Shown: in pieces, positions 5,565-49,104 of the stretch | Numbering within the stretch: position 1 is the stretch's first letter | Layout: each line of letters begins with the position of its first letter | NCBI GenBank assembly: GCA_023301565.1 | Contig: JALZUO010000037.1 | Coordinates: 2,138-66,137, forward strand | Length of the DNA stretch: 64,000 nucleotides | Source of the DNA: Oligoflexales bacterium | GTDB lineage: Bacteria; Bdellovibrionota_B; Oligoflexia; Oligoflexales; JALZUQ01 | Direction of reading: 5' to 3' | The notes under the pieces: model-generated | What the model saw: only the letters and a program-made list of their open reading frames with translations | The model's database searches: none | Told to the model about the DNA's origin: nothing | Position numbers and translations under genes: made by a program

Positions 5565-7880
5565 GTGTTAAGTATATTTCGCCGTGGTGATGCTGAACAA
5601 AGCAAGGCGACGCCTTCTAAAAATGGCACTGCAAAACCTACTTTGCAGGCTAAAGGAGCAAATGTGCAAAGTGCCGGTTACGGTACGTTTAAGGGCGTTT
5701 TCGTCCCAAGTATTCTAACGATTTTAGGTATCATTCTTTATTTGCGGCTGGGCTGGGTTTTAGGGAACGTTGGGCTCGCACAAACCTTGATTATTATTAC
5801 CATTGCTTCTGCCATTACATTTATCACAGGCCTTAGCATCGCGGCGACTGCGACCAACATGAAGGTTGGCGGTGGAGGTGCATACTACCTTATTTCAAGA
5901 AGTCTTGGTGTGGAGCCAGGGGCTGCCGTAGGTTTACCTTTGTTTCTTGCGCAAGCCTTGGGGATTTCTTTTTATATTGCTGGTTTCAGTGAATCTGTGG
6001 TTGCGCTTATTCCGGAAACGACATCTGCTATGCCAGAGGTTATTGCTTATTTTTTAGATGTTATCCGAAACCCCATGATTCTAAGTACAGGCACTCTTGT
6101 TCTGTTAGCTCTAATCGCATTTTTCTCTACCAACGCTGCTTTGCGCGTGCAGTTTATTATCTTGATATTGATCGTAACCTCGCTTGTAGCGCTTTTTTGG
6201 GGGAACCCCGATTACGTTCCAAAATCTGATTGGGGACCTATCCCTGAAAAGGAGTCTTTTTGGTTTGTCTTCGCTGTATTCTTTCCGGCTGTTACGGGTA
6301 TCGAGGCTGGGATCGCCATGTCCGGCGACCTAAAAGACCCTGGCAAGTCTTTGCCGTGGGGCACAATTGCAGCTGTGGTCGTAGGTTTTGTTGTTTATAT
6401 GGCTATTCCTGTGGTTCTTTTCTTTCGCGTAGATGAAGCTAGCTTGATCATGGACAACATGGTGATTCAAAAGATTTCAGCTTACGGCCCTATTGTAGTG
6501 GCAGCTATATGGGGTGCTTCCTTGTCTAGTGCTTTGGGTGCGATTTTAGGCGCGCCGCGAACGCTGCAGGCTCTCGCGCGAGACAGGGTGGTTCCACGCG
6601 TTCTTGGTATTGGGTCAGGCGAAAAAGACGAGCCTCGTATTGCAACGATTTTAACTTTTGTGGTGGCTTTACTCGGGATATCTCTTGGTAGCTTAGATGC
6701 TATCGCTCCGATTCTTTCAATGTTTTTTCTTACATCCTACGGTGCTCTTAATATGATTGCCGGGCTTGAGGGAGTCATTGCAAACCCCTCGTGGCGGCCA
6801 ACGTTCAAGACACCCTGGATGCTTTCGATTGTAGGAGCGTTTGCCTGTTTTGCCGTGATGTTTATGATCAATGCCGGGGCTACTATTATGGCAATCGGTT
6901 GTACGATTGGTGTTTACTACTTCATGCAAGCAAGGAATATGACTGCCCATTGGGGTGATATGCGCCGTGGAATTCTTATGTACCTCGCACGCTACTCTAT
7001 CTACAGCCTTGAGTCGCTTCCTTCCGATGCAAAAACCTGGCGACCAAACGCACTAGTGCTTAGCGGTAGTCCTACCACGCGTTGGTATCTAATCGAGTTA
7101 GCTGATGCGATCACGCAGGGAAAAGGTTTTTTGACGGTAGCTGCCATTTTAGGTGAGCACCAAGCAGACGAAGAAAAAATAGCGTCTCTGCGAAAAACCA
7201 TTCAAGATTACCTTTACAAAAAGAATGTACCAGCTATGGCTCACGTCAGTAGCTCTACAACTGTGCAAGAAGGCGTGCAAAACCTGATAAAAAACTATGG
7301 CGTCGGTCCAATAAAGCCCAATACTATTTTTCTTGGGGAAACTGAAAAAGAAGAAAACTTTAGTTCTTTTGGTAAGATGATTCACCTTGTGCATTCCGGT
7401 AAAAAGAATCTCGTGATCGTTCGCGAAGGTGACCCAAACCGTGTGGTGACAGGAAGAAAGAAAAATATTGATATTTGGTGGGGGCGAGAGCGCAAAAACG
7501 CAGGTCTTATGCTAGCCCTAGGCTATATGCTGCAAACCAGCCCGCAGTGGAGAGGTGTGTCTCTAAACCTAAAGACCATCGTAAAAACCCAAGAAGAAGA
7601 GCCAGCAGCAACTGAATTCCTCGAAAACTACCTTGCTAACAGTAGGATTGAGGCCAACACCAAGGTTAAGGTAAGCCAAGACATTTGGATGGGTATTCAC
7701 GAGTCTTCGAAAGCAAGTGACTTGATCTTTATTGGTATAAGGCCGCCAGGAAAAGAGGAGACCCCAGAAGAGTATGGCGTCTACTACCGCTCTTTACTCG
7801 AAAGCACTAAAAGGCTACCGCAGGTCGCGATGGTTATGACTGCCGAGGATATTAAGTTCACTGAAATCTTTAGTGGGTAG
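5565..7880 (+). CDS. SLC12/cation-chloride-cotransporter-like APC-superfamily permease with large cytoplasmic C-terminal domain
   Basis: 771 aa with a GTG start. GTFKGVFVPSILTILGIILYLRLGWVLGNVGL resembles the CCC TM1 signature. About 12 TM segments are followed by a soluble tail of about 270 aa. Confidence 0.7.
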   Translation: MLSIFRRGDAEQSKATPSKNGTAKPTLQAKGANVQSAGYGTFKGVFVPSILTILGIILYLRLGWVLGNVGLAQTLIIITIASAITFITGLSIAATATNMKVGGGGAYYLISRSLGVEPGAAVGLPLFLAQALGISFYIAGFSESVVALIPETTSAMPEVIAYFLDVIRNPMILSTGTLVLLALIAFFSTNAALRVQFIILILIVTSLVALFWGNPDYVPKSDWGPIPEKESFWFVFAVFFPAVTGIEAGIAMSGDLKDPGKSLPWGTIAAVVVGFVVYMAIPVVLFFRVDEASLIMDNMVIQKISAYGPIVVAAIWGASLSSALGAILGAPRTLQALARDRVVPRVLGIGSGEKDEPRIATILTFVVALLGISLGSLDAIAPILSMFFLTSYGALNMIAGLEGVIANPSWRPTFKTPWMLSIVGAFACFAVMFMINAGATIMAIGCTIGVYYFMQARNMTAHWGDMRRGILMYLARYSIYSLESLPSDAKTWRPNALVLSGSPTTRWYLIELADAITQGKGFLTVAAILGEHQADEEKIASLRKTIQDYLYKKNVPAMAHVSSSTTVQEGVQNLIKNYGVGPIKPNTIFLGETEKEENFSSFGKMIHLVHSGKKNLVIVREGDPNRVVTGRKKNIDIWWGRERKNAGLMLALGYMLQTSPQWRGVSLNLKTIVKTQEEEPAATEFLENYLANSRIEANTKVKVSQDIWMGIHESSKASDLIFIGIRPPGKEETPEEYGVYYRSLLESTKRLPQVAMVMTAEDIKFTEIFSG

Positions 7881-8453
7881 TTTGTCTATTTTTTTTACTT
7901 TGGCGCCATAGGACTGCAAGGTTTGTTTGTCTGTTTCCGAAGAATCTATTTCCATAAGAAAAATAGGGACACCACCAAGAAATATATTCACTTCATTGCG
8001 ATTTTCTGCAATCAGTCTAAAACCTAACCTTTCAAAGGTTTCCTTTCTCTTTTCGCCAACAGCAAGGCAAAGTATTCTTTGGCATTTAGAGTTTCTTGAA
8101 AATAAAATTCTTTCTCTGTCCAGGGCTTTTGAAAGGTTCCTGCCTTGAAACTTTTGGGCTGCGAAGCAGCCATTGAGCATATAAAAAGGAGTTTTTATTT
8201 TTTTGAATTCTTCGAAAAAATACTTTGTTTCAGCATTTTCTACTAAGTTTTGATAGTAAATTAGTCTTGCACCTGCGGCAATTGAACCAGATTCGTCATA
8301 GATTACGAAGTCGGTAACATCGTTGCGGTCTGAGTTTCGGTACTCTAGAAAGGATGGGTTAAATTTCACCCCAAGAGACTGCCAAGTCTCAAGCCACAGA
8401 CTCTTTATTCTGTCGCGCTCAATTCCGTCAATTTTTCCAATAAAAATATTCAC
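7815..8453 (-). CDS. GNAT-fold N-acyltransferase-like protein
   Basis: 212 aa. QKFQGRNLSKAL looks like GNAT motif A (Q/RxxGxG/A). The N-terminal half (SDRNDVTDFVIYDESGSIAAGARLI) resembles acyl-amino-acid / LuxI-like synthases. It is the last gene of a same-strand run with the two sensor kinases. Confidence 0.5.
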   Translation of the reverse strand: MNIFIGKIDGIERDRIKSLWLETWQSLGVKFNPSFLEYRNSDRNDVTDFVIYDESGSIAAGARLIYYQNLVENAETKYFFEEFKKIKTPFYMLNGCFAAQKFQGRNLSKALDRERILFSRNSKCQRILCLAVGEKRKETFERLGFRLIAENRNEVNIFLGGVPIFLMEIDSSETDKQTLQSYGAKVKKIDKLPTKDFSELNILGSHNHRDLR

Positions 8454-8505: not shown

Positions 8506-10281
8506 TCATAGAGCTACCTTTGGTGCAATAACTAAAGTAATCATATTAGCGTCTTGCCGAATAAGGCGGCTGGTCATCCCCGACATTTCCTCGAATGCTT
8601 CTATGTACTGGCGTAAAACTCTTTCCTCAAATTGGGTTCTTTGTTTCTTTGGTGAGCCCGAAATACCTAGAGCTATAGAGCCAGGCTTCGATGGCCTGAG
8701 GCTAGCTGTCAGAGTTCCCCCTGAAAGCTCAACCCTTGTTAAAGCGGACAGGTAATTGTGCCAATCAGAGACGGGGATATTTGTTTCTACAGTTTGACTG
8801 CTTGAGAGAGTTTCTGTGGTCAAGTGGCTAGGGAATGAAAATAGTTCATCCAGGGATACTAGCACTGCTTTTCCTGCGCTTGGTTTGAGGGTAGCAGTTT
8901 TTAGCATAGTTCCAATGTTACTATTCATTTTTGCGATTTTACTCAGTATGTCCCTGTATGCTTTAGAGTTTGGGTTGGATTTGTCGGTGGCTCCTAAGTA
9001 TTCAATGCCGCCTTGGATCTGCGCTATGGGAGTTTTTAAGTTGTGACTGATAAGAGACAAAAAATTCTTACGAATATCTACTGTGTTTTTAATCGCTACA
9101 GCTACAGTTTGCGAGCGCAGGCCGCGAAGACGTACCCAGAAAAGATGCAAGTACACGATGGATATAACGCTAAGGAAAAGAACCGAAGAAATAAAAAACT
9201 TTGGAATATATATATCTAAATACTGAATTTCTACATAGGAAATAGGTATTAGCATAACTAACAAAGCTAACATCGATAGAATGGAAGGGCCCAATCCTTG
9301 TGTTAGGTAGAGAAAAAGAATTAGTGCAGAGCACAAAAAGGCAATGGTGTTTTCTTGGGTTTTATTTGCAACATAGACACCTTTGTCTTGGCGTAGCATC
9401 GTGATGAAAGCTGCAAAGAAATTCGATAGCGGAACGCCAGTATCTTGTATTTTTCCGGAATACCAAAAACCATTGGTTTTAGCGTACCTTGTTCTTTGTA
9501 AGTCAATTTTGTTGTTTTCAAAGACCTTGGGCTGCGGCACATCGTTACCAAAAATGATTACATCTGCCGTTGTGGTAAAGTCTTTACTCAGAAACGTTTT
9601 AGCAGAGACTGCCTCTATTTTTTTTGGTGCAGGAAGGTTGAGTATAAGGTTGTCATACTGGTGTGTAAGATTCTTGCTTAGGTAGTTGTTCTTGGCATAT
9701 TTTTTATAAAGTTTGGTGAAAATCCAATTGTCCCAGTCTGGAATACTACATTGTATATTCATTTTATAGATACAGTCAGATGCTAGAGTAGTACTGTATT
9801 TTCTGTTGATTTCTTTGGGGACTTGAAACATATAGAAAAAAGAAGCAGTCAGGGTGATCTTGTCATGAATCATCAGCCTATCGACTATTTCGAATACTTC
9901 ATTTGTTTTGTTTATATGTAGTTGGTGAGCGCCCGAAAGCCAGCCAAGGATGATATCTTGTGCACCAAGAGCATCGGCTTTTTCAATCATTTCAGCATAT
10001 ACGCTTGCATCTAAATCTAAGAGCTTGCTCTTTTGAGTGGTTGGCAGAGATAGGGTGTCTTCAAGGGTGGCGTTGACCACCAATACGTCCTTGTATGGCC
10101 CTTCAGATTGGGAATCATATGATGTGTGTCGAAGGGCTAGTGCTAGTGCAGCACGCTCGCCTTTTGCAGCAATATTCTCTCTTTTATGGCCGGAATAGAC
10201 AATAGAAAGCAGAGAATAGTTGATTAAAATCAAAACCAGGATAGATGCCATGGTACTTAGATCAAATTTGTTTCTAAACAT
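8506..10281 (-). CDS. CHASE2-like membrane sensor with an intact HisKA H-box but a degenerate ATP-binding domain
   Basis: One N-terminal TM, about 270 aa periplasmic, then 3 TM. The H-box is FLSLISHNLKTPIAQIQGG (His codon 9043-9045). I could not recognise N/G1/F/G2 boxes in the C-terminal ~120 aa. Confidence 0.75.
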   Translation of the reverse strand: MFRNKFDLSTMASILVLILINYSLLSIVYSGHKRENIAAKGERAALALALRHTSYDSQSEGPYKDVLVVNATLEDTLSLPTTQKSKLLDLDASVYAEMIEKADALGAQDIILGWLSGAHQLHINKTNEVFEIVDRLMIHDKITLTASFFYMFQVPKEINRKYSTTLASDCIYKMNIQCSIPDWDNWIFTKLYKKYAKNNYLSKNLTHQYDNLILNLPAPKKIEAVSAKTFLSKDFTTTADVIIFGNDVPQPKVFENNKIDLQRTRYAKTNGFWYSGKIQDTGVPLSNFFAAFITMLRQDKGVYVANKTQENTIAFLCSALILFLYLTQGLGPSILSMLALLVMLIPISYVEIQYLDIYIPKFFISSVLFLSVISIVYLHLFWVRLRGLRSQTVAVAIKNTVDIRKNFLSLISHNLKTPIAQIQGGIEYLGATDKSNPNSKAYRDILSKIAKMNSNIGTMLKTATLKPSAGKAVLVSLDELFSFPSHLTTETLSSSQTVETNIPVSDWHNYLSALTRVELSGGTLTASLRPSKPGSIALGISGSPKKQRTQFEERVLRQYIEAFEEMSGMTSRLIRQDANMITLVIAPKVAL

Positions 10282-12079
10282 TTTTTGGCACCTTTACAGC
10301 AAAGGTTGAGCCTTCAGCGAGTTTGGAAGAGACTAAGTAGACATCCCCACCAAGCTGGTTTGCAAAAAGCTTCGATAGGTATAAGCCTATACCGCTGCCT
10401 TTTTCCTCATATACATGGTCATCTTTTACTCGGTAAAATTTTTCAAAGATTTTTTCTTGGTTCTCTTTATCTATCCCGTATCCATAGTCTTTGATGTGGA
10501 TAAGGACTTGGTTGGCTTTTATATAAGAAGATATTTCTATTTTCCCGCCTTTTGGAGAGTACTTTAAAGAGTTCGATATAAGGTTTTGAATGATTGTATC
10601 TAGCACTTCAGGGTTTGTTTTTAAGTGAAGTTTGCCATCTACATAGTTGATGATACGAATTGATTTTTGCCTGGCAGCGCTTTGAAAACGATCTATTATA
10701 CGCTCTGTAAGCTTTTTTAGGTATACTGGGTTAATAGTGCCTTTATCTACTTTGCCCATGTCGATGTCTGCCATCGTAGAGATGCCTTCGAGGAATTCTG
10801 CAAACTGCCTAGAAGACTTTCTAGTCCCTGCCAAGATTTCAGCTTGCGTGCCTGTAAACGATGTTGATTGTAGGGAACCAAGCTGGGTATCTATCTGCGA
10901 ATTGTTTTTGCTAAGGTATTTGGCAAGGTCAGAGATAAATATAGAGTATACAGAGTCTAGTTTTTCTCTTTGCTTAACTTTGAGTACTTGCTTTTCTTTT
11001 TGCATAAACTGGTTTTCAGCAAATCTTGCAACCATCATGATCTGAGAAAAAAGTGCAAATATGCAGAAATCTGCGCTTGGCAGGTATACAGAATAGAAGT
11101 GCAAACTAAGCATGCCAAGTATGATGATCAAAAATATTAGAACAGTGGGGTAGAGGGATTTTTCTACCTTTGTCTTTAGCAAGATAGAGACAAACAATAG
11201 AGCTGCGATAATTTGCAAAAACAAGGAGAGTGGAGTCGCGGCTATATGAATTTGTTTTTTCTGGACGATATTTTGCGCTTGCAGTGAAGCAAATTCAAGT
11301 ACCGAAACTCCCTCGGCTACGTTGTAAGGGTTGTTTCGGTAGGGGGTGTTGACGGTGGTTGGTTCTAGGGTCTGTGTGGCCCAGGGCTTGTAAGTCTTCT
11401 GCCCGATGAGGATAATGTCATACTTTGCTAGTGGGGGAAGCTCTGTAATAGAGGCGATGGTTTTCGTATTTATTTTTATATTACGTAGCGCTATCTGTTG
11501 GGGCAGGTTTTTAGGTTGTCTGCTTTTCATGAGGTCGTGCGCAAATAAAAATGATTTTTCTGTTCCCTGGTAGGCCGTCGTAGGAACCGTTCTTACAATC
11601 TCATAGGATCTGTTTCGTAGGGCGTCTATCCCAAGTATGTTTTTTCTGTAGTTAGCTAGGTGTACCGGGAAGTCTAACGATATGGGGTGTTTTTGGTTTA
11701 GAGCCAGCGTCAGGAGTTTTACATTTTTATGAGTAGACAAGACCTCTTTTAAAAATGCAGGGAGTCTTTTTTGATAATCATACTCAGACAGCAGATACGT
11801 GGCATAGATATCTGGTATGCCTGCCTTGAGGGCTTCACCGATAACATTGGTCAGTAAGCTCACTTTTTGCGATGGCGTTGATTGTTCGGTATCAAGAGCG
11901 AGGGTTAGGATCTTCTCTGTGGGTTTTAAGGCCGGTACAGATGTAACGGTTAGATCAAACAGAAACTCTTCGGTTTGCTTGCGCAAATCAGAAGTATAAA
12001 ATGCTAGCCCAACCATCAAGAAAAGAATGGCTAGGTAGAGGATGACTTTATTCTGAAAAGGGTTTTGCAATTTAACCAC
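10274..12079 (-). CDS. CHASE2-like membrane sensor kinase paralog with an intact HATPase_c domain but no phospho-acceptor His
   Basis: Same topology as the downstream paralog. N box NLISNSLKYS, G1 DYGYGI, F FEKFYR, G2 GSGIGLYL. The H-box position reads SIFISDLAKYLS (Asp codon 10928-10930). It overlaps the next gene's start by 8 nt. Confidence 0.8.
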   Translation of the reverse strand: MVKLQNPFQNKVILYLAILFLMVGLAFYTSDLRKQTEEFLFDLTVTSVPALKPTEKILTLALDTEQSTPSQKVSLLTNVIGEALKAGIPDIYATYLLSEYDYQKRLPAFLKEVLSTHKNVKLLTLALNQKHPISLDFPVHLANYRKNILGIDALRNRSYEIVRTVPTTAYQGTEKSFLFAHDLMKSRQPKNLPQQIALRNIKINTKTIASITELPPLAKYDIILIGQKTYKPWATQTLEPTTVNTPYRNNPYNVAEGVSVLEFASLQAQNIVQKKQIHIAATPLSLFLQIIAALLFVSILLKTKVEKSLYPTVLIFLIIILGMLSLHFYSVYLPSADFCIFALFSQIMMVARFAENQFMQKEKQVLKVKQREKLDSVYSIFISDLAKYLSKNNSQIDTQLGSLQSTSFTGTQAEILAGTRKSSRQFAEFLEGISTMADIDMGKVDKGTINPVYLKKLTERIIDRFQSAARQKSIRIINYVDGKLHLKTNPEVLDTIIQNLISNSLKYSPKGGKIEISSYIKANQVLIHIKDYGYGIDKENQEKIFEKFYRVKDDHVYEEKGSGIGLYLSKLFANQLGGDVYLVSSKLAEGSTFAVKVPKNV

Positions 12080-12153
12080 CTCTGGAGAAGTGGTATTGTA
12101 CTTTTTTTAAGCACTTTGTCACGAATGAAATATAAATTGTGGTTAATATTGGG

Positions 12154-12978
12154 TTATTTGGCCTTGTGCGCATATGCCTGCATGACGGAGTCGTAGACTA
12201 TCGCATGGTTATTTTCCATAGCCCGCTGGAAGCCAGCATTCATTTCTTTCCTGAGGTTTTGATCGACATAGCCAGCATCAATGAGCCTCTCCGCACTACT
12301 ATCGAGCAGATCTCTCCAGTCTTCTAGGACTTGGTGGCGAAGGGCTGGCTCTCGCCCGTCAATATGAGTGTTCAGTACTTTGGTTTGAATGTCCGTGTAG
12401 CCTGCTGTCTTTAAAAGTTGGCCGAGTTTTACCCCAACAAATGGGTCACCTGTTTTTTCATATTGGTAGTCGTTAAAAGCCATCCAGTACTTCCAAACAT
12501 TAGGTGAATACGGGTCAAGGAAAAAAGTGAAGTTCATGACTTCTGTAATGTAGACCTTGCCGCCAGGCTTAAGTACTCGAAGTGCTTCTTGCAGGACTTT
12601 TACAGGCTTTTTCGTGTGTTCGAGCATAAAGCAAATAAAGACCGTATCAAACGTTCCGCCTTTAAACTGCATGTCAGTTGCATCCATCGATTGAGTGCTC
12701 CAGCGAGCCTCAAGGTGGGGTGATTTAGCTAGGTAGTGCTTCGCACTAGAAAGTTGGTGCTCACTAAAGTCAATGCTTGTGAGTTCGATTTTGGGGAAGC
12801 GGCGAAGTAAAATCTCCGTTTGGGCCCCGACCCCGCAGCCCACTTCTAAAACAGACTGATTTTGATATAGGTTGATATCGGCATAGACGTTTGGCTCAAA
12901 TAGGCCCGCTTGCCTTATCAGTCGATCGGTTTCTTTTTGGTTGTATCCGTGAAGATAGCCTTTTTTGGGTGTTTCCAT
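12154..12978 (-). CDS. class I SAM-dependent methyltransferase
   Basis: 274 aa. Motif I is VLEVGCGVGAQTE, followed by LKPGGKVYI (post-I/II motifs). Confidence 0.8.
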   Translation of the reverse strand: METPKKGYLHGYNQKETDRLIRQAGLFEPNVYADINLYQNQSVLEVGCGVGAQTEILLRRFPKIELTSIDFSEHQLSSAKHYLAKSPHLEARWSTQSMDATDMQFKGGTFDTVFICFMLEHTKKPVKVLQEALRVLKPGGKVYITEVMNFTFFLDPYSPNVWKYWMAFNDYQYEKTGDPFVGVKLGQLLKTAGYTDIQTKVLNTHIDGREPALRHQVLEDWRDLLDSSAERLIDAGYVDQNLRKEMNAGFQRAMENNHAIVYDSVMQAYAHKAK

Positions 12979-13167: not shown

Positions 13168-14937
13168 TTGCAACACACCGAAAATGCATCCTTGCGAGAA
13201 ATAACAGCAAAAAGAGTGCGGGTACTGTCTCAAGGGACAGAAACTTTACCCATAAAAAAAACAAACTCTTTAAGCTCGCAGTTGGGCAACCCCGAAGATC
13301 GTGCCGTTAAAACCTTAGATGATGCATTGATGTCCGAACATCCATTGCAGCGAGTCCAAGAAATAGCTCCTCAGGTTCTATACTTTGGTCTTAAAAAAAC
13401 TACGGCTGAAAACCTGGTTCAAGCAATGCAGTACTGCAGTCCGGAACAGTGGCAGCGTATAGTTGATTATGATTGTTGGAACGAAGACAGGCTTAGGCTT
13501 CCGGCTCTAGCGTCTTGGCTACTTGTGTACAGGGCGATGGACGGCGAAGGAAAAGCATTTCTTGAGCGCTTTAAGCAGTTGGGTGATGAGCTTCAAACTG
13601 CAAGTGTTTGCGGTCAGTTCGATCTTATAAATGAAGATGAATATGATAAAATGCCGGACCACGAACGTGATAGTTTTGTTCCACTTCCCGGTCATGCTGG
13701 ATACTATAAAACCTCTACTAGCGATGAGCGCATGCAAGAGTTTTTCGATGCTTTGATCAACTCATCTTTTCAAAACGACATGCACTATGCATTTTCTATA
13801 CTTGGGCACGGTGCTTTTAGCCCTCCTCAAGAGTCTGAGTACCAAGCGATGCGGTTTCGCAAAGCTAGGGTTGAAGAAGACGGGTTTGTCGATAAAGATG
13901 ACGCTCTGCGCTTTTGGAAGCCAACAGGCATAATGCGAAAAGATATTTCTGCTTACTGTGAAGCAAGCTTTACAGATGCAGCTACAACCACAAATACAAA
14001 TAAAGGCGAAGCATTGACTGAATGCTCAGAACAAGGATCGTTTTTAGATCGTTGTTTGTCTCTGCTAGGTTCTCCATCGCTTGGTGAAGATGTTCTTCAG
14101 CAAAAGCTGCTTCTTTTTGCAAACTCAATTGCATCGGCTGTCGGCTTTGAAGTTTACGAGTTAGGTCGGTCAAGTAAAAGTTTGGAGCTGGCTAAAGGTG
14201 CTCTTTCCTTGGGCCTTGAAAAAATGGCAAATAGGGACCCTTCGGTTGGAGCTAAACTGTTGGTTGATGAAAACTGGCAAACCCTGTTTCAGGTTGGGAC
14301 TGGGATCACAGATTTTTTTCGTTTAAGAGTTTTAGATATGCTTCGCAGCGCATTTGGTGCAAAGGTTGATCAATTGACCGAGTTTCATGAAACTCGCTCA
14401 TTTGGCAAAGCGCTTCTTTGGATAGATCAAGAGTTGAATGGCCCGCTTGAATCGGCGCATTGCGACTTGTTGAGGGGGTTGTTTAACCGGTTTCCGTTGG
14501 CTGGCGACGCTTCGGCAGCTTCAAGGGGAGGCGTCGAACAAGCAGAGCTGGAAGTGATTTCGGATTTTGCCTCTTTGCGGTCCTTAGGTGCCCAAATTGA
14601 TGCCGTTCTTTCTATGGTTCAATTTTTCAAGAATCAGTCTAGCGTAGAACTTCTTAGCTCTTTTGAGGCGATCCGCTCTAGCCTGATTTTGTCTACAAGG
14701 CTGAAGCAAGAAAAAAGTCTTGATTGGGGGTTGACCGTAAACGAGAGCGACCTAGCAAGGTGGAAAGATTTTTCACCGAATGATAAAGCAGCTGCGACCT
14801 ATACGCTTTTAAGCCGTATGCAAAAAGATTTCCCAAGTGTCGAGCAGTCGATGTTTGCAGGGATATTAGGTGATGCAGTTGGCGGTAAGCAATTTTCATT
14901 GATGGAAAGTGGAGAGTTATTTTATGCATTTGGGTAA
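13168..14937 (+). CDS. hypothetical protein (589 aa, acidic, soluble)
   Basis: TTG start preceded by TAGGAGG with 9-nt spacing. Long uninterrupted ORF with ordinary protein-like composition. I can name no motif. Confidence 0.6.
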   Translation: MQHTENASLREITAKRVRVLSQGTETLPIKKTNSLSSQLGNPEDRAVKTLDDALMSEHPLQRVQEIAPQVLYFGLKKTTAENLVQAMQYCSPEQWQRIVDYDCWNEDRLRLPALASWLLVYRAMDGEGKAFLERFKQLGDELQTASVCGQFDLINEDEYDKMPDHERDSFVPLPGHAGYYKTSTSDERMQEFFDALINSSFQNDMHYAFSILGHGAFSPPQESEYQAMRFRKARVEEDGFVDKDDALRFWKPTGIMRKDISAYCEASFTDAATTTNTNKGEALTECSEQGSFLDRCLSLLGSPSLGEDVLQQKLLLFANSIASAVGFEVYELGRSSKSLELAKGALSLGLEKMANRDPSVGAKLLVDENWQTLFQVGTGITDFFRLRVLDMLRSAFGAKVDQLTEFHETRSFGKALLWIDQELNGPLESAHCDLLRGLFNRFPLAGDASAASRGGVEQAELEVISDFASLRSLGAQIDAVLSMVQFFKNQSSVELLSSFEAIRSSLILSTRLKQEKSLDWGLTVNESDLARWKDFSPNDKAAATYTLLSRMQKDFPSVEQSMFAGILGDAVGGKQFSLMESGELFYAFG

Positions 14938-47691: not shown

Positions 47692-49104
47692 TTAATAGAA
47701 GCTTTTTGGATCGATCTCAAATTTTTGCAATTTCCTTAAAAGAGTGACCTTGGTCATATTCGTGTGTTCAGCGGTTTGGTTGATTTTACCGCGAAACGCT
47801 GTCAACGCTCTAACAATGAACTCTCGCTCGAACTTTTCTTTGAGTATCGGATAGTCTAATTTTTCAGTTCCAAAAAAATCATCTTCTGAAGGATTTGAGC
47901 TTTTTGATGTAGCGCCAGATCTTGCGTCAGAGCATACATTCGGTGGCAGAGACTCTAATGTCAGTTTTGTTCCAGCCTCGCAAATAAAACTGCGTTCTAT
48001 CGCATTTTCCAGTTCGCGGATATTTCCAGGCCAGTTATAAACCAGAAGTTTTGCCAAAGCGTTTTTTTCCATACCTTGGATCTTGCGCTTATGTTTTTCA
48101 TTGAACTTTGCGATCATGAAATCAACCAAAGAAGGAATGTCTTCGCGCCTTTGCCTAAGCGGAGGTAAGCTAATCGGCAGTATGTTCAGGCGGTAAAAAA
48201 GATCTTCGCGGAAAGTTTTGGCTTCCATCATCTCTTCTAGCGGTTGGTTGGTAGCAGCTAGGATACGGGCATGAACCGGAATATCTTTGTTTGCTCCGAT
48301 CGGGGTTACCACCTGCTCTTGGAGTACCCGCAATAGTTTGGCTTGCATGGACACGCTAAGTTCACCGAGTTCGTCTAAAAAAATCGTTCCGTTCCCGGCA
48401 AACTGAAACTTGCCTATTTTCTTTTTGTCAGCGCCCGTAAAGGCACCTTTTTCATGTCCGAACAGCTCGCTTTCAATCAGTGATTCTGGAATCGCAGCGC
48501 AGTTGATGGCAACGAAGGGCTCTTTGCGGCGGTGGCTATTGCAGTGAATGGCCCTTGCTACAAGTTCTTTGCCGGTTCCACTTTCTCCGCGGATTAAAAC
48601 AGGGGTATCTACTTTTGAAAGTTTATAAATGATGTCAAAGACCTGGTTTAAACTCTCAGAGTCTCCGATAATATCTCGTTTTTGGTCGAAGGCTAATTGG
48701 GGTGCAGAATGTGCGATGGTTTGCACTAAGTTTGATGCTTGAGAGGCTGTATTTAGGACGTCGGCCAAAGCGTCTGAACTGACTGGTTTTTCAAGGTAGT
48801 CAAAAGCACCTAATTTAATTGCTTTGACTGCATCGGAAACATCCGAATATGCAGTGAGCATAATACAGATGGTTTTAGGTGACTTTTCTTTTATCTTTTC
48901 AAGTGTGCCTATGCCGTCGAGGCGGGGCATATTTACGTCAAGCAGTGCAACGTCGAATTTATTGGATTCTTCGAGCTTGCCTAGGGCATCTATCCCGTCC
49001 ACGGCCGTTTCAACTTGCCAGCCTTGTAGCTCCAGGTTCCCTTTGGTCGTGAGCCTAAGCTGGGCGTCGTCGTCGACAAGCAGAAGGTTTCCTTTTTTAG
49101 CCAT
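47692..49104 (-). CDS. sigma-54-dependent response regulator (NtrC family)
   Basis: Intact REC domain (LLVDDD, LLDVNMP, MLTAY, DYLEKP). AAA+ domain with GESGTGKE and GAFTGA. C-terminal HTH. No kinase gene is adjacent. Confidence 0.9.
   Translation of the reverse strand: MAKKGNLLLVDDDAQLRLTTKGNLELQGWQVETAVDGIDALGKLEESNKFDVALLDVNMPRLDGIGTLEKIKEKSPKTICIMLTAYSDVSDAVKAIKLGAFDYLEKPVSSDALADVLNTASQASNLVQTIAHSAPQLAFDQKRDIIGDSESLNQVFDIIYKLSKVDTPVLIRGESGTGKELVARAIHCNSHRRKEPFVAINCAAIPESLIESELFGHEKGAFTGADKKKIGKFQFAGNGTIFLDELGELSVSMQAKLLRVLQEQVVTPIGANKDIPVHARILAATNQPLEEMMEAKTFREDLFYRLNILPISLPPLRQRREDIPSLVDFMIAKFNEKHKRKIQGMEKNALAKLLVYNWPGNIRELENAIERSFICEAGTKLTLESLPPNVCSDARSGATSKSSNPSEDDFFGTEKLDYPILKEKFEREFIVRALTAFRGKINQTAEHTNMTKVTLLRKLQKFEIDPKSFY

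Follow-up and report, generated by a model that had tools for sequence, protein, structure and literature searches.

A conserved tandem pair of CHASE2-type membrane sensors with reciprocal kinase defects, a candidate split histidine kinase of uncultured bacteria

We analyzed a stretch of 64,000 nucleotides (nt; hereafter the window) from an Oligoflexales bacterium of the Bdellovibrionota_B (assembly GCA_023301565.1, contig JALZUO010000037.1, forward-strand positions 2,138 to 66,137), in which two adjacent genes on the minus strand encode membrane sensors that may together constitute a single histidine kinase. Gene A (10274..12079) encodes a CHASE2-type membrane sensor of 601 amino acids (aa), with a DHp-like hairpin that lacks the acceptor His and an intact CA domain, the ATP-binding part of such kinases. 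Gene B (8506..10281) encodes a CHASE2-type membrane sensor of 591 aa, with an H-box-bearing DHp and a degenerate (pseudo) CA. The start of B lies inside the end of A, in the 8-nt overlap ATGTTTAG (10274..10281), where the ATG of B occupies 10281-10279 and the TAG of A 10276-10274; read directly, the letters bear out both open reading frames (ORFs) and the overlap as an earlier, sequence-only reading of this DNA had placed them. From the overlap we infer translational coupling. An AAGGTG motif within the coding sequence of A (10289..10294, minus strand), a putative Shine-Dalgarno sequence, lies 7 nt upstream of the ATG of B.

The two proteins share one topology by hydropathy and in AlphaFold2 (AF2) models, whose mean predicted local distance difference test (pLDDT) score is 75.0 for A and 88.5 for B: one transmembrane (TM) helix, about 250-280 aa outside, three further TM helices and a cytoplasmic DHp plus α/β core. 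This matches the common plan (one TM, about 270 aa outside, three TM, kinase core) proposed from the letters. All coordinates within A and B refer to the minus strand. In A, TM1 spans residues 12-30 (11990..12046; AF2 helix 7-28), the extracytoplasmic sensor about residues 31-282 (11234..11989) and TM2-TM4 residues 283-351 (11027..11233; AF2 helices 282-302, 310-329 and 336 onward). The corresponding parts of B are TM1 at residues 10-28 (10198..10254; AF2 helix 8-28), a sensor at about residues 29-312 (9346..10197; pLDDT above 90) and TM2-TM4 at residues 313-380 (9142..9345; AF2 helices 307-328, 330-355 and 361 onward). An N-terminal TM helix, about 250-300 aa outside and three TM helices before the output module are the topology of the CHASE2 family, and the same 1+3 arrangement of helices is found in A and B. 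Neither window protein matches Pfam CHASE2 at E<=1 or is assigned to it in an NCBIfam scan, so that the CHASE2-like character claimed earlier does not hold as a direct match; we keep the label, for divergent CHASE2 sensors, because relatives of both proteins match PF05226. These are 13 of 42 B-family members (best E 4.9e-6), the B relative of locus L007 (5.7e-5) and, on the A side, the A-type partners in the L005, L006, P0075 and P0085 contigs, which carry PF05226 CHASE2 together with HATPase_c; the A sensor also aligns to the B-family sensor by hhalign. Likewise, the two proteins had been called paralogs, and BLASTP finds nothing significant between them. When the A-family and B-family profiles were aligned, however, hhalign returned a probability of 99.3% (E 4.7e-20) over 574 columns, end to end, and by this profile-level comparison A and B are distant paralogs over their whole length. 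The B-family sensor contains near-invariant C170, C178, W114, W186 and H286, of which, judging by conservation, C170 and C178 likely form a disulfide. Since the A-family sensor lacks these residues, the two sensors probably read different signals.

The C-terminal half of A is that of a histidine kinase in all but its acceptor. The CA domain (residues 450-599; 10283..10732), supported by Pfam and by matches to structures in the PDB, scores 6.4e-22 against HATPase_c, and the residues of its N, G1, F and G2 boxes (N499, N503, D531xGxG535, F545, F548 and G561xGxG565) are all present, as had been noted from the letters. The half as a whole aligns with NCBIfam kinase models and with kinases of solved structure (YycG 1e-20, VicK 2e-19), in some alignments over the DHp as well, and DivL (PDB 4q20) is a sequence match to the CA. 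The DHp-like hairpin (about residues 355-440; 10760..11017; AF2 helices 336-404 and 410-440), delimited by phmmer and family alignments, gives no match to HisKA models in the Pfam scan. Residues 328-484 hold no His, in line with the earlier claim of none between the last TM helix and the ATP-binding domain, and no profile alignment places a His in DHp helix 1. The equivalent of the acceptor is K387 (codon 10919-10921) in phmmer alignments to VicK (4i5s) and YycG (4u7n) and in Phe-anchored family alignments, and the A relative of locus L020, which reads RFAHEL, fixes the same column. D384, the Asp that the sequence-only reading had put at this position, was dropped in favor of K387 on these alignments. 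One MAFFT run moves the register by four residues, to S383, and no register gives a His. We also considered S379 as an alternative acceptor and dropped it; its column varies among S, G, A, D and E across 19 relatives.

In B, the acceptor is retained. The DHp (about residues 395-464; 8890..9099; AF2 helices 361-432 and 439-464) contains the H-box NFLSLISHNLKTPIAQ and matches Pfam HisKA at 4.3e-5 with 23.9 bits, slightly short of the gathering score of 26.9. Its His is H413 (codon 9043-9045), where it had been placed before; the H-box is not the perfect one then described, since the residue at His+1 is Asn (N414) and not Glu or Asp. T417 stands at His+4. In the AF2 models of both proteins the last TM helix continues into a long α1, followed by a loop, α2 and the C-terminal α/β domain, and the distance into this TM4-α1 helix is 51 residues for K387 of A and 52 for H413 of B, so that in a shared bundle the two would be at the same level.

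The C-terminal domain of B (residues 470-591; 8509..8874) is an α/β sandwich without N, G1, F or G2 boxes. It has no HATPase_c match in the Pfam scan and no match to our local CA hidden Markov model (HMM), and it has no intact ATP lid. The absence of the boxes had been recognized from the letters, and the domain nevertheless proves to be a remote CA homolog. The AF2 model shows a strand-helix-hairpin-helix-strands topology (pLDDT ~70-90), which compared with the model of A is about 20 residues short where A carries the G1-F-lid-G2 segment. Across the B family, the C-terminal 120-180 residues are weakly conserved in sequence and retain a common pattern; the alignment of this region from 61 sequences matches an alignment of bona fide CA domains (hhalign probability 86%, E 5e-6) over 132 columns, the whole CA. 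Foldseek matches the cytoplasmic part of B to the DHp and CA of ZraS, YycG, KdpD, RetS, DivL and ChpT in alignments of 200-240 columns, the kinase region of RetS being among the best structural matches. Because profile comparison, model topology and Foldseek all point to CA, we regard the C-terminal part of B as a degenerate CA fold, predicted to be ATP-blind, and not as an unrelated domain. Compared with a complete, self-sufficient HisKA kinase, A thus lacks the acceptor His and B the CA boxes, and at the sequence level the ATP-binding domain and the acceptor site lie on separate polypeptides, as in a split kinase.

The pair and its defects are conserved well beyond the window. Marine metagenome contigs L001 and L002 contain an orthologous pair in the same synteny and with the same 8-nt overlap, at 55% (A) and 50% (B) identity to the window proteins. 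The B orthologue of L002 (5072-6851, plus strand) is split into ORFs of 231 and 379 aa at an ambiguous base (X), probably an assembly or sequencing artifact, since the near-identical L001 copy is intact. A profile search with B returned 307 cluster representatives at E<=1e-3, most of them of 600-680 aa and aligned from TM1 through the DHp; at least 95 of these representatives lack a CA and make up the B family. The 42 members compared with Pfam include 37 with HisKA, the 13 with CHASE2 and none with HATPase_c. Named family members come from uncultured bacteria (P0125 is labeled Bdellovibrionota, P0069 Pseudomonadota) and, where a name is given, it reads "hypothetical protein" or "signal transduction histidine kinase". 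Other searches were less productive: a word-indexed protein search gave only three B relatives and one true A orthologue, its repetition with a 42-sequence profile gave no new family members, a first metagenome scan gave no loci, and a profile scan of genome contigs gave one weak HisKA match in a Saccharibacteria metagenome-assembled genome, set aside as irrelevant.

At distant loci, where identity to the window proteins is ~18-25%, an A-like gene lies directly 5' of the B-like gene in 22 of 23 cases. In five of the six contexts reached through B relatives, a gene with CHASE2 and HATPase_c and without HisKA is immediately upstream. Scanning metagenomes for the pattern SHNLNTP[VI]A added 20 further loci, and all 17 with upstream DNA have an A-type gene, with a CA match, directly upstream on the same strand. 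The A/B junctions in 20 related pairs mostly fall between -13 and +9 nt, most often as a 4-nt ATGA overlap. The sequence-only reading had named absence of the defects from orthologues as a sign of decay; the reciprocal pattern is kept in them, and also at about 20-25% identity.

These comparisons bear directly on the simplest alternative, that a CHASE2 kinase was duplicated in tandem, that the duplicate is on its way to pseudogenes and that the complementarity arose by chance. The weakly conserved C-terminal part of B, and the fact that this domain is about 50 residues shorter in the window protein than in most relatives, could be taken in its favor. We nonetheless judge recent decay very improbable: both ORFs are intact, the same pattern persists down to about 18-25% identity, the pseudo-CA fold is retained in the AF2 model (pLDDT ~70-90), and conservation is highest at the H-box in the B family and at the ATP boxes in the A family, so that the comparative data contradict it. 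Since both the reciprocal defects and the tight gene coupling persist in orthologues and distant relatives, we see a conserved design and not decay, and on this comparative evidence the pair is probably a natural two-protein kinase.

Conservation within the two families is as asymmetric as their domain content. Among 19 A-family sequences, taken from loci found through B, N499, N503, G533, G535, F545, F548, G561, G563 and G565 are invariant and D531 is kept in 18. The His column of the same proteins is occupied by 10 residues (A, T, K, S, V, D, Q, F, N and, once, His), so that 18 of the 19 have no His there; about half keep the Glu at His+1 despite the lost His. These 19 proteins show no other conserved His column in the DHp region, and no conserved Ser, Thr or Tyr at the His column or its neighbors. 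In the B family, by contrast, the His is invariant, Thr occupies His+4 in 94 of 95 members, and no member matches the CA HMM.

The search with B also recovered 34 canonical sisters (SHDLKTPIAK) that have a CA domain, with E-values of 1e-35 to 1e-42 against the local CA HMM. One of them, P0196 at locus L009, is a CHASE2-HisKA-HATPase_c protein followed by an NtrC-type regulator. Canonical kinases are detectable as relatives of B and, by HMM scores, of both A and B. Because such sisters exist, A and B look like old products of the duplication of a canonical kinase, followed by reciprocal loss under selection.

Several observations weigh against reading the pair as one kinase. Two are exceptions to the pattern. 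The B relative of locus L007 (5001-7082, plus strand; P0095, 693 aa, CHASE2 5.7e-5, HisKA 4.4e-5, no CA) lacks an upstream gene of the A type; its neighbor is a divergent ABC transporter operon. The A relative of locus L020 (1899-3884, plus strand) has both His and Glu in its RFAHEL and, going by its sequence, may be a complete kinase, even though its partner is a normal B. Incomplete and orphan histidine kinases are, moreover, common (PMC3591291; 10.64898/2026.02.27.708494), and these facts together would suit two proteins that act independently, with A autophosphorylating elsewhere or serving as a Ser/Thr kinase, B receiving its phosphate from acetyl phosphate or an unrelated kinase, and adjacency meaning co-regulation. 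We consider such independence improbable. The two genes are paired at 22 of 23 distant loci, the stop codon of one overlapping the start codon of the other, a linkage far tighter than co-regulation needs; the defects are exactly reciprocal, and the DHp of A offers no conserved alternative acceptor column.

A further difficulty is that we found no cognate regulator for A/B in the window, where none adjoins the pair and a single ORF has a REC domain. The most serious point concerns His+1, which is Asn in 86 of the 95 B-family members versus Asp in 29 of the 34 sisters that contain a CA. Willett and Kirby found in four HisKA kinases that kinase activity, unlike phosphatase activity, depends on the acid adjoining the His, and that Thr or Asn at His+4 is needed for phosphatase and not for kinase activity (PMC3510030). 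B has N414 in place of the acid and T417 at the phosphatase position; read literally by those rules, its DHp would carry a kinase-minus, phosphatase-plus signature, as expected if B no longer receives phosphate from ATP. Some HisKA-like families lack the His+1 acid (preprint 10.64898/2026.02.27.708494), so the rule is not universal, which mitigates the difficulty in part.

It is this signature that gives most weight to the idea that B acts, under the control of its sensor, as a phosphatase or as a phosphotransferase of the ChpT/Spo0B kind, never phosphorylated by A, and that A is a pseudo-kinase resembling DivL or RetS, an allosteric regulator whose nucleotide pocket acts as a sensor or serves another substrate. 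The loss of the acid correlates with the loss of the CA motifs, the model of B matches the structures of RetS, DivL and ChpT, and regulation through a heterodimer is known for RetS (PMC12189002). We rate this explanation as unlikely, though well above the other alternatives. It is hard to explain without a phospho-acceptor why A keeps its catalytic ATP-binding residues at about 25% identity; the invariant His of B is the sole conserved candidate acceptor encoded with A, whose own His column and neighbors hold no conserved Ser, Thr or Tyr; and no hybrid kinase bearing a REC domain is linked to the pair in the loci examined. Phosphorylation of B by A is favored because the ATP-binding residues of A are strictly kept without a conserved acceptor and the His of B is the only conserved His encoded alongside.

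From the anatomy, homology, reciprocal pattern and coupling described above we infer the following course of events, and give somewhat better than an even chance to its core, that A/B is a hard-wired asymmetric split kinase in which the CA of A phosphorylates the His of B. A canonical CHASE2-HisKA-HATPase_c kinase would have given rise to both genes; A would have given up the acceptor His and kept the catalytic domain that binds ATP, and B would have retained the acceptor in its extremely conserved H-box while its CA decayed to an ATP-blind scaffold. Translational coupling would ensure that the two proteins are made together, and their homologous TM and DHp helices may bring them together, either in an A:B heterodimer or in a higher A/B complex; the overlap of the genes across 22 of 23 loci and the homology of these regions would be indirect evidence of such contact. 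In this complex the CA of A would phosphorylate H413 of B in trans, and phosphorylated B would hand its phosphoryl group on to a response regulator whose gene lies elsewhere, so that output would depend on two different periplasmic CHASE2-type sensors. The wider claim, to which we give a little less than an even chance, is that such pairs make up an obligate heteromeric family of HisKA-class sensor kinases, widespread but so far seen only in uncultured Bdellovibrionota-like bacteria, in which duplication froze the asymmetry of a dimer: A would always be the ATP donor and B, with Asn in place of the acid, always the acceptor, with two CHASE2 sensors and a single His phosphorylated per complex.

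Two natural systems resemble A/B in having the ATP-binding and acceptor functions on two polypeptides. CheA3/CheA4 of Rhodobacter sphaeroides is a natural split kinase, neither protein autophosphorylating alone while the mixture does (PMC3591291), and Hik36/Hik43 (PilL-N/PilL-C) of Synechocystis interact and have been described as a split histidine kinase (PMC7656254). These CheA systems, however, belong to the CheA class, are split by domain loss (HPt/P1 and P3-P4) and are soluble or cluster-bound, and the genes of Hik36 and Hik43 are not adjacent, whereas A and B are full-length homologous HisKA-class TM sensors, each with a degenerate copy of its partner's part, encoded by overlapping genes. 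Canonical CHASE2-HisKA-HATPase_c kinases (P0196, L009) have the topology of A/B and an H-box of the same family, NFxSLxSH[DN]LKTPIAK. They differ in that a single chain holds both a full CA and the His, which has Asp at +1, and in P0196 a regulator adjoins; A and B have one function each and usually no adjoining regulator.

Among regulatory pairs, RetS and GacS of Pseudomonas aeruginosa (PDB 6dk7, 7n0e) are sensor kinases that meet through their DHp, one of them not a normal autokinase (PMC12189002). There RetS inhibits a complete and self-sufficient GacS, both are hybrids with receiver domains, and the genes are not a coupled reciprocal pair. DivL of Caulobacter (PDB 4q20) is similar to A in having DHp and CA with the acceptor His replaced, and acts through contacts with another kinase (PMC4211667). 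It differs in its conserved Tyr at the His position and in regulating a complete CckA, whereas in the A family the column is unconserved and the partner lacks a working CA. P2CS-type surveys of incomplete histidine kinases (iHKs), defined as HATPase_c proteins without a recognized HisKA or HisKA proteins without HATPase_c (10.64898/2026.02.27.708494), take proteins singly and seek hidden His-containing HisKA variants, and report no adjacent homologous reciprocal pair; by SMART counts, 3.66% of HisKA proteins lack HATPase (PMC3591291). In a literature coverage that was incomplete, we found no published account of full-length, homologous HisKA-class sensors that are encoded as a conserved pair of neighbors and have reciprocal defects.

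In ChpT and Spo0B, a DHp-like bundle that bears a His is joined to a CA-like domain without ATP binding; these soluble proteins lack a sensor domain and, in phosphorelays, take their phosphate from receiver domains. The cytoplasmic architecture of B is of this kind, a DHp His bundle with an ATP-blind CA-like domain, and ChpT (PDB 4fmt) is matched by Foldseek at E ~1e-4. B, by contrast, is a sensor with four TM helices, coupled to a paralog that has an ATP-binding domain, and no receiver domain is present in A/B or adjoins the pair in most loci.

As the sequence-only reading had stated, no response-regulator gene adjoins A/B in the window. The sole REC-domain ORF of the 64 kb encodes an orphan NtrC-type sigma-54 regulator (47692-49104, minus strand; REC, Sigma54_activat and HTH_8), which is a candidate partner of A/B. 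It is flanked by RuvC and unrelated genes, none of its neighbors being a kinase, and it matches the regulator beside the canonical CHASE2 kinase of L009 with 501 bits, a similarity that lies largely in the conserved AAA+ core. At locus L008, a gene after the A/B pair (7207-7986, plus strand) encodes a response regulator of 259 aa with a receiver and an uncharacterized C-terminal domain of ~130 aa that has no Pfam match.

Upstream of A, a consensus scan marks a promoter-like site, GTGACA-16-TACAAT (12095..12122, minus strand), with 10 of 12 matches, which is not evidence of function. A scan found no convincing terminator-like site between A, B and the next gene, a GNAT-like gene of 212 aa that starts 52 nt 3' of B (7815..8453, minus strand) and is possibly co-transcribed with it. 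The assignment rests on a BLASTP match (3e-7) to an Acetyltransf_1 gene of L005, the ORF having no Pfam match of its own. GNAT homologs adjoin the A/B pair in 13 loci (L001, L002, L005, L006, L010-L017 and L019), in two of them on the opposite strand, and the product may be a functional partner or target of the A/B system. Immediately 5' of A on the same strand lies a gene for a class I S-adenosylmethionine (SAM)-dependent methyltransferase (12154-12978, minus strand), which probably stands outside the system since it is missing at the orthologous L001 locus. It separates A from a divergent DUF6178 gene (589 aa; 13168-14937, plus strand), a neighbor found also in L001, L002 and L006.

Histidine kinases are taught as homodimers, and paralogous kinases usually evolve not to cross-dimerize. 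Since the early 1990s, trans-phosphorylation has been proved in the laboratory by letting a His-less mutant and an ATP-blind one complement each other. A related in vitro split of EnvZ is cited in PMC3591291. Proteins such as A and B are currently annotated as "hypothetical" or as plain "histidine kinase". Asymmetry has been seen in homodimeric kinases (PMC3904827), and the split-kinase model would fix that asymmetry genetically. If true, it would provide a clean system in which to study how autophosphorylation is directed (cis or trans) and how asymmetric it is, with one active site and one acceptor per complex, and would show two sensor inputs combined at a single catalytic event. The pair would also raise the question of how a His without an adjacent catalytic acid is phosphorylated; should that His not be phosphorylated, the pair would reveal a new sensor-phosphatase logic. 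As a split kinase, A/B would be the histidine-kinase counterpart of pseudokinase pairs of the HER2/HER3 type, or of those ABC transporters that are heterodimers in which one site is degenerate.

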